Below, piece by piece: positions 6,728 through 56,185 of a stretch of 64,000 nt of DNA (positions are counted from its first letter, which is position 1; every line of letters begins with the position of its first letter). Origin of the DNA: Candidatus Doudnabacteria bacterium (GTDB lineage Bacteria > Patescibacteriota > Doudnabacteria > UBA920); contig JAEUSF010000002.1 in assembly GCA_016788665.1 (NCBI GenBank), positions 6,006-70,005 of the forward strand, given 5' to 3'. Below the pieces are notes generated by a model, which did no database searches, was not told the DNA's origin, and was given only the letters and a program-made list of their open reading frames with translations. The translations under genes and the position numbers were made by a program.

Positions 6728-7504
6728 TTATTTAATTATCTTAACACTTGTCATAACAACCGCTTCTTTAGGCCTTCCGTCAGTCGGCCCCATTTGAGGA
6801 ATTATTTCTACTTGCCCAATTTTATCTACCACTTCTATACCAGAAGCAACCTTACCAAAAATAGTATAACTAGCAGGAAGAGGAACATCCCCTAACATTA
6901 TAAAGAATTGACTTGTGTTGGTATTAGGCCCCCTGTTTGCCATAGCTAGCACGCCCTTAACATACCCTTTTTTATATAGTTCAGAAGCAGGATTTACTTC
7001 GTCTGCAAACTCACCGCCAAATGCACTTTCCCCGCCCGCGCCTGTACCAGTCGGATCACCGCCCTGAATAACAAACCCTTTTGCAACACGGTGGAAAGTC
7101 AAGCAATCAAAGTACCCAGCATTAGCAAGCCTCAAGAAATTCTCTACCGTTTTTGGCGCATCCTTTTCATAAAACTCTAAAGTAATTTTTCCAAATCCAG
7201 CAACATCCATCTCTACGGCCCTAGCAGAAATAGAAACTTTTTCACTAGTCAGCTTACTTTGATCAAAATTCCTTTTACATGCCCCTTGGGCATTATCTCC
7301 CGCAACCTGGCCCTCGCTTGAATTTGCAGGAGCAGAAGCAGCCGGTTTTTCTTCACTCATATTTTCATTTCCTTCAGTATAGCTTTCCGTGTTGGCATTA
7401 ATGGGAGCCTCGGACGCCTTATTTTTTGTCCGCATAAAAAACACTGTACCAGCAAACAGAAGAGCTACTATTAATATAACTATGCTTAAAGTTTTATTAG
7501 TCAT
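6728..7504 (-). CDS. Peptidyl-prolyl cis-trans isomerase, cyclophilin type, with N-terminal membrane anchor
   Basis: FHRVAKGFVIQGGDPTGTGAGG cyclophilin signature; N-terminal TM helix. Confidence 0.85.
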   Translation of the reverse strand: MTNKTLSIVILIVALLFAGTVFFMRTKNKASEAPINANTESYTEGNENMSEEKPAASAPANSSEGQVAGDNAQGACKRNFDQSKLTSEKVSISARAVEMDVAGFGKITLEFYEKDAPKTVENFLRLANAGYFDCLTFHRVAKGFVIQGGDPTGTGAGGESAFGGEFADEVNPASELYKKGYVKGVLAMANRGPNTNTSQFFIMLGDVPLPASYTIFGKVASGIEVVDKIGQVEIIPQMGPTDGRPKEAVVMTSVKIIK

Positions 7505-7577
7505 TTTATTAGACTTTTAATTTTGTACTTTCTGGCTTTAGATGTAATAATTTCAAGCCAAAGCCATAAATAAAAGA

Positions 7578-53196: not shown

Positions 53197-53262
53197 TAAG
53201 TTAAAATATAATATGTAAATATACCCGTATTATAGCTTAAAATCACTAATTTGCCCAAAAAA

Positions 53263-53290
53263 ACCGGAGTAAATATACTCCGGTCGCTAA
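53263..53290 (-). terminator. Rho-independent terminator (CCGGAGTA tatt TACTCCGG plus T7)
   Basis: 8-bp perfect palindrome with a T-run on the minus strand. Confidence 0.7.
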
Positions 53291-53320
53291 AGTAGTACTA
53301 CGTGCCCGCTTTAGCTCGGG

Positions 53321-53362
53321 CTAAATCCACGGCAAGCTATCCATATCCCAAGCAACGTTCAT
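53321..53362 (-). CDS. 13-codon mini-ORF MNVAWDMDSLPWI with a strong SD (AAGGAGGT, 6-nt spacer)
   Basis: Direct reading; below the ORF-track cutoff; followed by hairpin GCCCGAGCTAAAGCGGGC and the terminator. Confidence 0.3.
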   Translation of the reverse strand: MNVAWDMDSLPWI

Positions 53363-53401
53363 GGGAAACCTCCTTTCTTATCACTCTTCGGCCAATAACC
53401 A

Positions 53402-53578
53402 TTACGATACCGAGTCCGATTTCCCATCCAACTGCTGAATAGGACCGATAATTTTTGACTTCGCAGCAAAATACTGCATAGTTGCTTGCTGGATAGTAAA
53501 GCCACACTTTCGGCAAATTAGCCTGTCACCAGACTCTTGCAGTTGCACGTCCTGACAATTGACGCACACACCTTCCAT
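53402..53578 (-). CDS. Small zinc-ribbon protein, 58 aa (CxxC-x13-CxxC); unannotated
   Basis: AGGGGG SD 6 nt upstream of ATG; MEGVCVNCQDVQLQESGDRLICRKCGF...; coordinates may be off by 1. Confidence 0.45.
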   Translation of the reverse strand: MEGVCVNCQDVQLQESGDRLICRKCGFTIQQATMQYFAAKSKIIGPIQQLDGKSDSVS

Positions 53579-53611
53579 TTGTCACCCCCTGCCAAGATTT
53601 ATCACAAACAA

Positions 53612-53642
53612 AAACTCCCGGGGCTTGAGCCCTGGGAGTTTA
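53612..53642 (-). terminator. Rho-independent terminator (ACTCCCGGGGCTTGAGCCCTGGGAGT), sequence-related to the one at 20428
   Basis: Stem followed on the minus strand by TTTTTGTTTGTG. Confidence 0.6.
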
Positions 53643-53775
53643 AAGTCAAGCCGTTTGCTTAACTCAAAATTTCCAGCCTCAAGCGCCTGGGGGTAAAATA
53701 AAACCAAAAATTTTGAGTCAAATTATTCATTTCCGTAATTATAGCAATTATATTCACTCTGTCAAACTCGCTATC

Positions 53776-55011
53776 TTACATACCCTGCTCTTCCTTGGGC
53801 ACAACCACAGAATAAATAGTCGGCATGGCCAAATTCATACTTTCCTTTAAAGTCATTTTTTCAGCCCTCAAAGAAAATTCCTGGTACAAATCTTTACCTT
53901 TTAAATATAAATCCATAGCAGAAACTAAGCCCTCAAACACCAAAGTGCTTTCACCAAAATTCTTTGTTGGAACAGGCTTCACTTTTAAAGCCAACTCTTT
54001 TTCACCCATTTCTTCGAGCATACTTATAAACTTGCTTTTAACATTACTTAACCAAGTTGTCTGAGTAAAACCACCCACACACGCAAAACCAGTCAATAAA
54101 AAGACTACAAAATACAAAGGACTAGAAGGATAAATTTTTCTTGCCTTAAGTAAACCAATTATATCTTCCGGCAAAACCTTTAAAGGCTCTCTACGACCTT
54201 TTGCATCTATACCCCAAAACATATATGTATGTTCTTCATGTAAATATTTTTTCCACAAAGACTGGCCCTTTTCCGAAAAAACTAACCTAGTCAAAATATG
54301 ATTAGGATTTTTAAAAACCTCCAACAAATAATCGGCTGCCACACTTTCAACGGGCAAAAAAATAGTTTTGGGAGCTGAGGGAAAAACTTTCTGCCAAAAT
54401 ACATTACTTGCCTTGCAGGCCTGGAGAGAAAAACTTAACAAGTCAGTATCTACTAAAAAAGCTTCGGCGAACCTTCTTCCCAATTCCCCATGCTTTTCTT
54501 TAAATTTTTTTATATCTTCCGCTTTTTTTGAAGGGGCGTAAAAAACCGGCTGGGTTTTTAGCCTGTCTGGGAAAAACGAAAAGCGCCTCTGCTCACTATT
54601 TTCGTGAAATATAACCGAACCAGACCAAGACGAAGTATTGTTTAGCGACACACTTTCGCAAGAAAACAACACCGCAAATTCATGGGTATTAAAGTGCAAA
54701 GTATAAATAACATCGGCGTTCAAAAAAATAGGATGCCCCCACAAACCCAAATGCCCGACAGTAGAAACCAAAGGGTTGGCCCGCAATTGCTCAATGCATT
54801 TTTTTGCAAGATCGGGCCCATACAAATTCTGTAGCCATTTTTCAACAATTTTCAAAAACACAGCATCGGGTTCAGCCTTTGAAAGCTCCCAGCCTTCCTG
54901 TATATATTTTTTTAAGGACCAGTCGCCAAAATTTTCTTCTATTTCTCTTAATACTGGTCTTTTATTGAACACCGCCTCCCTCATACGGTCTAGATTTCGA
55001 GAGTCTGTCAT
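53776..55011 (-). CDS. Hypothetical protein
   Basis: 411-aa ORF; no recognizable motifs. Confidence 0.5.
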   Translation of the reverse strand: MTDSRNLDRMREAVFNKRPVLREIEENFGDWSLKKYIQEGWELSKAEPDAVFLKIVEKWLQNLYGPDLAKKCIEQLRANPLVSTVGHLGLWGHPIFLNADVIYTLHFNTHEFAVLFSCESVSLNNTSSWSGSVIFHENSEQRRFSFFPDRLKTQPVFYAPSKKAEDIKKFKEKHGELGRRFAEAFLVDTDLLSFSLQACKASNVFWQKVFPSAPKTIFLPVESVAADYLLEVFKNPNHILTRLVFSEKGQSLWKKYLHEEHTYMFWGIDAKGRREPLKVLPEDIIGLLKARKIYPSSPLYFVVFLLTGFACVGGFTQTTWLSNVKSKFISMLEEMGEKELALKVKPVPTKNFGESTLVFEGLVSAMDLYLKGKDLYQEFSLRAEKMTLKESMNLAMPTIYSVVVPKEEQGM

Positions 55012-55481
55012 AAGGAATAATATTATAGAACAAAGACTTTGGGCTGTGTAGATATTAAGGCAAGTTTAATAATTTTGGCTATAAATAAGCACACAAAATA
55101 CAAAGCCATTTGCAAAGGGCCGTCCTATTTTAAGAGGACAGCCATTTGCTTAAGTCACGTTTTATCTGTCGGCTTCGATCAAGCCGCCAAGACAAAATTA
55201 ATATCCCAAACTGTGGAATTTTAATTTTGGTGGGTTCGGTGGGTATCCTTTTTCCCCCGAACTTTCCACCACTCGCAAGCTCGTGGTACCGGAAAGCTCT
55301 CCTCCAAAAGCCGGCAAAAATCATTGGTTAGTGGGGATCGGTCACCTCACGCTACTCTCCTCATCCCTTCGGGAATCGTCGAGTGACGCTGCGGCGACCC
55401 CCGCCACTATTGAAAGCTGCGCTCGCTCGCTTTCAATTCCCGCCTAAAGGCGGGACCATTCCTTTTCGATCCCCTACCACC

Positions 55482-55518
55482 AAAAGAAGTCATGCAATTG
55501 AATTGCATGACTTCTTTT
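55482..55518 (-). terminator. Perfect 18-bp-arm palindrome immediately 3' of tRNA-Lys (AAAAGAAGTCATGCAATT g AATTGCATGACTTCTTTT)
   Basis: Direct reading; followed by TTTTGG on the minus strand. Confidence 0.6.
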
Positions 55519-55593
55519 GGTGGGTTCGGTGGGGATCGAACCCACGACAAACGGCTTAAAAGGCCGCTGCTCTACCAACTGAGCTACGAACCC
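55518..55593 (-). tRNA. tRNA-Lys (anticodon TTT), CCA encoded
   Basis: Manual cloverleaf: acceptor GGGTTCG/CGAACCC, D arm GCTC-AGTTGGTA-GAGC, anticodon loop CTTTTAA, T arm GTGGG-TTCGATC-CCCAC. Confidence 0.8.
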
Positions 55594-55687: not shown

Positions 55688-56185
55688 ATGGTATATTTAT
55701 ATAAAAGTATGTTACAAAAATATAAAAATAAAAATTCTGGCTTTACCTTAATAGAAATTTTAGTAGTTGTTGCAATTATTGCGCTTTTAAGTTCCATAGC
55801 TCTCATAGGCCTTATGTCGGCCAGGGAAAAATCCCGAAACGTTAAAAGACTAGGGGACATGACCCAAATGAATACGGCTTTAGAATTATATAATGCACAA
55901 AATAAAGGCTACCCTCCTTCTGTTAACGGAGTACCGCAAGGCATGACACCTACATTCCTAACAGGATTACCCCGCTCCCCTATTCCTCCCGACGGATTTT
56001 GTGACATTACCAGCAATCCTGCAGGCCTTCCATCTAACGATTATTATTACACTCCCACGGGAACCTCAAGTCTTATAAACGGTGTAACTGTATGGTCAGA
56101 CTACATTTATTACTTTTGTCTAGGCGGCCAAACCGGCAACTTTGGCCCTGGGCTTAGAATACTTACACCAAAAGGTGTCAGATAA
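55688..56185 (+). CDS. Type IV pilin-like protein (prepilin-type N-terminal cleavage/methylation domain)
   Basis: KNSGFTLIEILVVVAIIALLSSIAL class III signal; terminator 56190-56232. Confidence 0.75.
   Translation: MVYLYKSMLQKYKNKNSGFTLIEILVVVAIIALLSSIALIGLMSAREKSRNVKRLGDMTQMNTALELYNAQNKGYPPSVNGVPQGMTPTFLTGLPRSPIPPDGFCDITSNPAGLPSNDYYYTPTGTSSLINGVTVWSDYIYYFCLGGQTGNFGPGLRILTPKGVR

Follow-up and report, generated by a model that had tools for sequence, protein, structure and literature searches.

Prophages and genomic islands insert chiefly at tRNA genes, and repeats of the tRNA tail in the adjoining DNA are routinely taken as leftovers of such events. Among the described systems, mycobacteriophage Ms6 integrates in the T loop of a tRNA-Ala gene (PMC1762012), Islander-type islands and the logic by which they are recognised have been presented (PMC4383910), integration positions within tRNA genes have been sorted into sublocation classes (bioRxiv 10.1101/2020.11.02.365908), and the concept of CIME is the one used in ICEberg 2.0 (PMC6323972). 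Our literature search returned generic papers of this kind on tRNA islands and CIMEs and none on gene-less modules with inverted T-arm and tail copies. At the locus described here, what separates the tail repeats is a module without genes, conserved and structured, which recurs across phyla and whose ends always match the tRNA.

The locus lies behind a tRNA-Lys(UUU) gene in the window, i.e. the whole stretch of 64,000 nucleotides from a Candidatus Doudnabacteria bacterium that was analysed. We call antiT the inverted copy of the T loop and the T-stem 3' strand of the tRNA. On the basis of the D-block homologies and of the position of unit A between the tRNA and D material, positions 55150-55523 are best read as a compound, partly deleted array of tRNA-tail modules, composed as follows.

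55518 to 55593, minus strand: intact tRNA-Lys(UUU) gene with CCA encoded (ARAGORN; Rfam RF00005), anchor of the array
55477 to 55523, minus strand: 47-bp palindrome, terminator-like hairpin with 23-nt arms and a 1-nt centre
55465 to 55474, minus strand: antiT, GGGGATCGAA on the minus strand, reverse complement of tRNA positions 54-63 (10/10)
55341 to 55464, minus strand: core of unit A, three GC-rich hairpins (fold prediction)
55324 to 55340, minus strand: 3' strand of the unit A closing helix, CGATCCCCACTAACCAA, in a 17-nt helix with 55467-55483 (76%)
55248 to 55315, minus strand: 3' two-thirds of a D-block core, conserved long hairpin (BLAST and alignments A1 and A4)
55225 to 55247, minus strand: tail copy from T loop to CCA plus AAAA, att-like, closing the D unit (22/23 to 55515-55537)
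55193 to 55229, minus strand: second hairpin, 16-nt arms, 88% (alignment A1)
55150 to 55180, minus strand: truncated start of a further D-block, antiT remnant GATCGAA plus GCCGACAGATAAAACGTGACTTAA (BLAST)

From the tRNA outwards, the order is palindromic hairpin, unit A, D unit without its 5' third, tail copy, hairpin and the truncated start of another D unit, after which comes the promoter of the 411-aa gene (TACACA-17-TATAAT). The tRNA-Lys(UUU) gene reported by the initial annotation at 55518-55593 on the minus strand was called again by ARAGORN and by Rfam RF00005 (75.8 bits; start at 55518 or 55521). The adjacent palindrome, described there as perfect and 37 bp long, is perfect and in reality measures 47 bp (23+1+23, arms 55477-55499 and 55501-55523, 100% complementary), 37 bp being the portion outside the tRNA. 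Its stem takes in the terminal CCACCA of tRNA-Lys and an A-tract/U-tract, and a homologous hairpin, showing compensatory changes, stands behind tRNA-Lys(CUU) in locus L046. Two of the three partial tRNA copies that had been noticed were confirmed at or near the positions given. The direct copy matches at 22 of 23 nt over 55225-55247, 19 nt of which are exact, 290 bp from the tRNA 3' end, and this 19-mer of the tRNA tail occurs twice in the window at up to 3 mismatches vs 0.03 expected, so that the repeats align beyond chance. The inverted copy placed at 55467-55490 corresponds to TTCGATCCCC at 55465-55474, which complements the tRNA T loop/T stem (55531-55540) without mismatch. The copy placed at 55327-55349 was revised: its exact match to the tRNA is limited to GTGGGGATCG and it is better seen as the 3' strand of the 17-nt helix. 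The block indicated for 55225-55593 is present and the feature in fact reaches down to about 55150.

The antiT forms both the start of unit A, which spans 55324-55483 between the tRNA and the D-block material, and the 5' strand of its closing helix. The predicted hairpins of unit A include CCCGCC-UUUA-GGCGGG and AUUGAAAGC...GCUUUCAAU, and BLAST against all fetched loci gave no homologue of its core. The 3' strand of the closing helix (55324-55340) resembles the tRNA tail minus the acceptor strand and matches, in opposite orientation, the 'linker+antiT' of L036 (20 nt, 95%). The D material has clear relatives: 55219-55315 matches the cores of L046 (85% identity, E 2e-23) and L036 (78%, E 2.5e-16), which sit behind tRNA-Lys(CUU) and tRNA-Lys(UUU), respectively, in two Doudnabacteria-like genomes. 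The hairpin at 55193-55229 is equivalent to the post-tail terminator of L036 and L046, with a similar loop (CAGTTTGGGATA vs CAGCTGGTCTGG). Downstream of the tail copy and this second hairpin, 55150-55180 corresponds to the first 31 nt of the D core (97% to L036, E 3.5e-8; 90% to L046). The D family comprises three members (window, L036, L046); a metagenome scan with a D-block 20-mer added none and returned a single chance match in purine-rich DNA.

The DNA between the repeats had been described as GC-rich and structured, and it is: GC content is 0.48-0.60 across 55200-55500 vs 0.20-0.37 in the adjoining spacer, and the block folds at -116 kcal/mol on the minus (tRNA) strand (z = -5.1 against shuffles), more stably than on the opposite strand (-98.8 kcal/mol). 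No credible ORF was found inside 55150-55517. The neighbouring genes encode a pilin-like protein and a protein of 411 aa; the latter is 100% identical to a MAG protein from Candidatus Doudnabacteria (CPR), is conserved in block-free relatives and gave no Pfam domain. The neighbouring window proteins showed no integrase domain, and tblastn with 14 tyrosine recombinases, a search of limited sensitivity, detected no integrase gene in the window.

The window instance, a decayed example of a module class, is of value for having led to that class. Members were collected by scanning GTDB (one genome per species) for TTCGATCCCCACC, a 40-70-nt gap and GGGGATCGAA. The scan returned 45 loci vs about 0.5 expected by our own arithmetic (596 Gb, both strands, 31 gap lengths); a few of these correspond to coding sequence or to two convergent tRNAs. 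In 28 of the 45 loci, a 14-nt tail copy composed of the T-stem 3' strand plus the acceptor 3' strand lies at most 300 nt downstream of the antiT, and this copy was absent from the search pattern. The tRNAs of the scan loci are Ala, Lys, Met, Thr, Asn and Leu, a census which is biased because the pattern held one T-arm sequence fixed. A scan of every tRNA in the fetched loci showed that tRNA-Gln(CUG) in L010 and L040, which has a different T arm (GTTCGAATCC), has the same layout behind it: a hairpin, then an antiT (AAGGATTCGAACCT or AGGGATTCGAAC) and, past the core, a tail copy, both matching tRNA-Gln itself. Altogether, about 30 modules were found behind tRNA-Ala, -Gln, -Lys, -Met, -Thr, -Asn, -Leu and -Arg genes, in CPR bacteria, Clostridia (Oscillospirales), Nitrospinota and others, and modules were found only behind tRNAs. 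Among viral contigs (IMG/VR), a scan with the GAAT-type T arm located modules at provirus ends (L058, L064, L066 and L067, the last being of high GC with tandem units), and the GATC-type pattern gave no match.

As read from the sequences, these modules have a common layout: hairpin, antiT, multi-hairpin core and a tail copy beginning inside the T loop. Briefly, a complete module consists of (i) a hairpin that includes the tRNA 3' end and is often an intrinsic terminator, (ii) the antiT of the local tRNA, (iii) a GC-rich core of 60-220 nt with 2-4 hairpins and (iv) a direct copy of the local tRNA tail starting within the T loop. In nearly all cases, the antiT has its inner edge at tRNA position 53/54. 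For the tail copy, the starting position is 61 in the window and ranges from 55 to 61 elsewhere, 57-58 being the most frequent; the direct repeat is 16-60 nt long. Just 5' of the tail copy lies a short Watson-Crick complement of the local acceptor strand.

The tRNA-derived ends fit whichever tRNA precedes them. The C2 core is common to tRNA-Gln (L040) and tRNA-Ala (L024 and L048), and its ends differ, each set fitting the local tRNA; conversely, several unrelated core families occur at the tRNA-Ala(GGC) locus. In five loci (L008, L014, L038, L044 and L047), CCA is not encoded in the tRNA gene and the tail copy also lacks it, so the copies derive from DNA or from a primary transcript and not from mature tRNA; an origin by reverse transcription of mature tRNA was rejected on this ground. 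Modules are also stacked in tandem arrays of 2.1-2.2 units, every unit starting in the T loop, with periods of 119 bp (L038, units 100% identical), 171 bp (L012, 96%) and 194 bp (L017, 94%).

The same locus was compared in relatives, and both empty and occupied sites were found. The closest one (L001), whose neighbouring protein is 87% identical, carries upstream of the 411-aa gene an intact tyrosine-integrase (Phage_integrase) gene and a small ORF, then a tRNA-Lys 3' fragment outside any intact tRNA. This displaced fragment is followed by a hairpin, the antiT GGTGGGGATCGAA, a GC-rich core of about 140 nt and a second tail copy; a third tail copy is degenerate with a native-looking trailer, and near-identical native trailers follow two of the three copies. 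The integrase island is at least 10 kb long and its repeat starts at tRNA position ~56, block repeats starting at 55-61. The sequences of three relatives of this integrase (L051-L053) end short of the tRNA-proximal side of the island, and no relative was found in viral contigs. Since this island sits at exactly this position, the site is a genuine integration hotspot, as the initial annotation had suspected. Its description of the repeats as att-like likewise agrees with a direct repeat that begins in the T loop, a canonical integrase sublocation. In a relative of about 50% identity (L002), the order is tRNA-Lys, plain terminator, pilin gene and 411-aa homologue; L036 has the same order with a D-block inserted between the terminator and the pilin gene, so that L002 and L036 form a pair of empty and occupied sites. 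A second relative at 50% identity (L003), like L002, has no block at the same tRNA. Within the ~8 kb fetched around the loci, the same 14-recombinase tblastn identified integrases only in L001/L051 and, just beyond the tRNA-Gln block of L040, a 93-aa C-terminal remnant.

Conservation of structure was then considered. Over 27 non-identical blocks, the mean MFE z-score is -3.5 vs dinucleotide shuffles. Ten Clostridial cores of families C1 and C2, including the tRNA-Gln copy, were gathered in alignment A3, in which 98% of the cells of 25 proposed pairs are standard pairs vs 40-53% when partners are slid by 1-3 columns; eight pairs are altered on both sides, and the covariation score was reached by no shuffle. 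One-sided changes giving G·U or U·G amount to about 15 cells on the tRNA-sense strand and at most 2 on the antisense strand. In alignment A4, the long hairpin of the D family keeps its pairing through three double-compensatory changes among L036, L046 and the window. The generic marks of a structured RNA are thus present, compensatory changes in both alignments and a strand-specific G·U pattern in A3, and show, at the level of sequence comparison, that selection acts on the secondary structure of module cores, in the tRNA-sense strand. The sense-minus-antisense folding energy is -3.9 kcal/mol where composition predicts -2.2, a slight excess only, so the strand call rests mainly on the G·U pattern.

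In family C1, mean pairwise identity is 0.96 for the tRNA and 0.92 for core plus tail vs 0.63 and 0.59 for the flanking hairpins (baseline ~0.5), and the D core is more alike between genomes (0.86) than its two tRNA-Lys isoacceptors (0.79). Several short motifs are shared, on the sense strand, by cores that are otherwise unalignable with one another: GTGAG in 11 of 24 core families (reverse complement 0), GAGCG in 13 (reverse complement 1) and AAGCGA in 7 (reverse complement 0). A cross-family covariance model was dropped because MAFFT aligned the three-hairpin CPR family (alignment A2) too poorly. No promoter-like site was seen between the tRNA and the blocks in the window, and the post-tRNA hairpin has no U-tract in L016, L038, L044 and L047.

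The block corresponds to no known family among those searched. Rfam 15 at gathering scores returned tRNA only for the window and 18 block-bearing loci, and searches at permissive thresholds, run on the block of the window (up to E<=10) and on that of L036, gave no family beyond tRNA. BLAST of the window region against phages yielded tRNA matches only, and that of a Clostridial core against phages and plasmids yielded nothing. Individual candidates were discarded on specific grounds: RNase P RNA, SRP RNA, 6S RNA and T-box (no model match, no conserved motif), retron (no reverse transcriptase gene), IS110 bridge RNA or omega RNA (no adjacent DEDD recombinase or TnpB/IscB gene), small ORFs (frame broken by indels; SD-like GGAGG with no conserved ORF after it), a K-turn at the closing helix (motif inconsistent between blocks) and an H-type pseudoknot pairing antiT with the tail and the acceptor complement with the acceptor strand (connecting loop too short).

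We propose, with moderate confidence and from sequence comparison, that the modules are integrase-less, T-loop-anchored, CIME-like mini-elements which yield a putative structured read-through RNA. The observations behind this proposal include the recurrence of the module type behind many tRNAs in several phyla, the fit of the tRNA-derived ends to whichever tRNA precedes them, the repeat boundaries in the T loop, the stacking beside genuine integrase islands and the variation of unit number. The modules would occupy the T-loop att position of tRNA genes as mini-insertions. Units would be gained and lost by recombination between tail repeats, recombination or slippage being sufficient for both, and removal of a unit would restore a clean tRNA plus hairpin. 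T-loop-specific tyrosine integrases acting in trans, like that of L001, may move the modules, and read-through from the tRNA promoter would transcribe them into structured RNA, as sequence pointers suggest. Hairpin-templated (quasi-palindrome) correction is a candidate process for keeping the antiT matched, and gene conversion between paralogous blocks a candidate for swapping cores. Several points count against this proposal or are left aside by it, among them the rarity of integrases near the blocks, the slight strand excess in folding energy, the small D family and the bias of the census mentioned above. A unit of 119-190 bp makes a very small double-stranded circle to serve as attP substrate, and a classical attP model accounts neither for the antiT nor for ends that re-match a new tRNA around the same core. 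The acceptor-strand complement 5' of the tail copy has no explanation in the proposal, and the sequence just 5' of the tail copy is unlike the T-stem 5' strand, contrary to what is expected of an integrase core site.

Other readings were weighed against the same data. If the locus were a resident, non-mobile ncRNA gene, i.e. a chromosomal structured RNA co-transcribed with the tRNA, the tail-copy ends would share tRNA 3' processing and termination signals and form a closing helix, their match being maintained by gene conversion or quasi-palindrome correction. The sense-strand structure, the strong conservation of the core against its flanks, the sense-only motifs, the lack of a separate promoter in the window and the way the antiT arm extends the terminator palindrome all agree with such a gene. 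The block is missing from the same tRNA in L002 and L003, however, the D core is closer between genomes than its tRNAs are, unrelated core families share one tRNA-Ala(GGC) locus, and arrays as well as truncated copies are a usual trait of selfish or mobile DNA; we consider this reading unlikely, though of appreciable weight. The small tRNA-derived ncRNA evoked by the initial annotation stands for the two ends, which are tRNA-derived, and fails for the core, which is not. Plain scars, in which successive integrations and imprecise deletions at a tRNA hotspot leave att repeats with functionless junk between them, would account for a direct repeat beginning in the T loop, for the integrase island and the three tail copies with native trailers in L001, and for the visibly rearranged and truncated array of the window. 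They do not account for cores nearly as conserved as the tRNA next to hairpins that are not, for compensatory and sense-strand G·U changes, for one architecture and size class across phyla and tRNAs, or for the identical units of L038. The inter-repeat DNA falls into module families, conserved and structured, that are met again behind many tRNAs of other phyla, so the earlier suggestion of integration and excision scars is not supported as a full account, and we give it a rather low probability. The blocks could instead be tRNA-programmed RNAs rather than passive hitch-hikers, with a conserved multi-hairpin scaffold and two end segments re-written for each tRNA, the 5' one antisense to the T loop and T stem and the 3' one a sense tail copy. 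They could then act in trans on the tRNA or its gene, e.g. by guiding or blocking recombination at attB, or could capture or monitor the tRNA 3' half. We hold this to be doubtful, with a low probability.

A palindrome-driven replication artefact, in which template switching at the terminator hairpin duplicated the tail both in inverted (antiT) and in direct orientation and the cores are incidental, is very unlikely. It would fit an antiT that continues the terminator inverted repeat and covers 16 nt of tail in L043, a window palindrome that is perfect over 47 bp and the terminal hairpin loops of L017, 'flipped' between units, but it leaves unaccounted for both the conserved cores common to several genomes and tRNAs and the near-constant inner boundary of the antiT. 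Finally, a decayed tandem tRNA array (one of the options of the initial annotation), a tRNA pseudogene or a permuted or standard tmRNA is extremely improbable. Tail copies are present, and the permuted-tmRNA model, whose gathering score is 47, gives 24.5 bits in the window and 18.7 bits in L036. This sub-threshold match merely covers the real tRNA T arm, the hairpin and the antiT; ARAGORN calls neither tRNA nor tmRNA in the block, and the acceptor 5' strand, the G3:U70 pair and the tag reading frame of a tmRNA are all absent. No tRNA-model match was obtained in 55225-55517 at E<=10, and the cores are unalignable with tRNA 5' parts, so the block is not a decayed tRNA array.

Should the modules prove mobile, no smaller riders of the tRNA-integration pathway would be known; they would form a loose integrase equivalent of MITEs and make the automated mapping of islands more difficult. 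Should they instead be functional RNAs, they would represent a widespread unannotated RNA class tied to tRNA loci, CPR bacteria included, whose non-coding RNAs are poorly known.

Compared with the described systems, the modules are closest to T-loop tRNA islands and prophages, with which they have in common that the tRNA is intact, that its 3' end recurs as a displaced direct repeat beginning in the T loop, that copies are stacked in tandem and, in L001, that a real integrase island lies at the same site. By the Islander logic, the window has the displaced 3' fragment as a direct repeat (22/23 nt, 290 bp apart) with its start at position 61, in the T loop, which is a canonical sublocation like the anticodon loop and the 3' end, and no integrase inside the element. 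The modules differ from these islands by their size (119-290 bp, with neither integrase nor other gene), by the presence of an inverted copy of the T arm and of a conserved, RNA-like core, and by ends that re-match different tRNAs while the core is unchanged. They resemble CIMEs in being gene-less, bounded by att-like repeats, in tandem with an integrase element (L001) and presumably helper-dependent; attL/attR-like boundaries are kept, and integration and transfer genes are absent. CIMEs, however, are kb-scale decay products of ICE or IME at one site, whereas the modules are about 0.1-0.3 kb long and form conserved families behind many tRNAs, with structural selection at the RNA level and a putative mobilization.

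With MITEs and REPINs, the modules have in common a small size, a non-coding and hairpin-rich sequence, inverted-repeat bounds (antiT and tail) and multi-member families. Their terminal repeats, in contrast, are not element-specific, since they are copied from the local tRNA, which is the target, and differ where that tRNA differs; their direct repeat is variable (16-60 nt) and not a fixed short target duplication as in MITEs, and no parent IS or transposase is known for them. IS110 bridge RNA and the omega RNA of TnpB/IscB combine a structured scaffold with variable segments that match a DNA target. The modules would be similar in a 'works-like' sense only, as a scaffold with one antisense and one sense segment to the tRNA gene; their matching segments are terminal and pair with each other, and a guide function is conjectural. 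tRNA 3' external transcribed spacers are short, unstructured and located inside operons, with no tail repeats and no multi-hairpin core, and the E. coli 3'ETS-leuZ sRNA sponge is a non-coding RNA produced from a tRNA transcript downstream of the tRNA. The modules, in their proposed form, would likewise be RNA from a tRNA transcript, to which tail repeats and a multi-hairpin core are added. Considering these likenesses and differences together, we file the modules as tRNA-gene-anchored integrative DNA, belonging to none of the tested families.

The order of genes around tRNA-Lys is not the same in the window and in two of the loci compared with it, namely L002, a relative without blocks, and L036, a locus with the same gene order and a D-block, as seen from the placement of the pilin-like gene:

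window 55688-56185, pilin-like gene, upstream of tRNA-Lys, in divergent orientation
L002 5335-5919, and also L036, pilin-like gene, downstream of tRNA-Lys and on the same strand

Since this gene differs in both position and orientation between the window and L002 and L036, a rearrangement of the tRNA-Lys locus took place next to the array of the window. Between this array and the promoter of the gene for the 411-aa protein, two copies of a 10-nt direct repeat, AGCCATTTGC, were found at window 55104-55149, one on each side of a terminator-like hairpin, GTCCTCTTAAAATAGGAC. The conserved 1.1-kb spacer that follows the 411-aa homologue in L002 contains a "tRNA-???" with a 2-nt anticodon (ARAGORN, 7486-7561), and its window counterpart (about 53200-53776) contains a small zinc-ribbon ORF (53402-53578).

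A GC-rich and hairpin-rich non-coding stretch of roughly 300 nt is conserved in two relatives, including L001, the closest one, immediately upstream of the tyrosine integrase:

L001 2680-2980, non-coding stretch
L051 9690-9990, non-coding stretch

This stretch, for which no Rfam match was obtained at the gathering score, may represent a leader or else an associated RNA. An RNA of a known family was located about 4 kb away from a tRNA cluster that carries a block, in a MAG labelled Saccharibacteria:

L014 4435-4555, LOOT RNA (RF03000, 89 bits)

At L025 (5321-5540), the tRNA-Lys(CUU) gene has no encoded CCA (…CCCA TAA), whereas the tail copy found downstream of it has …CCCA CCA.

Repeats were also observed beyond the blocks. 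In the IMG/VR contig L064, a 26-nt unit is repeated five times in tandem immediately 3' of the block, each unit being composed of 15 nt of tRNA tail and a spacer, TAAGCGAAGCT, which includes AAGCGA, the motif enriched in block cores. At four loci (L006, L032, L048 and L066), short GC hairpins form a series beyond the second hairpin, with (T)ATATCATCA after every one of them, and inverted GATGATATAC comes next. As L066 is located within a predicted provirus of 48.5 kb, these runs may belong to the end of a prophage, as arm-type sites or iterons. Finally, in L003 (4633-5090), a block-free relative, and in L004, the ORF of a GIY-YIG endonuclease separates an intact tRNA-Lys from a 36-nt copy of its 5' part, an arrangement that looks like a homing-endonuclease insertion having duplicated part of the tRNA.
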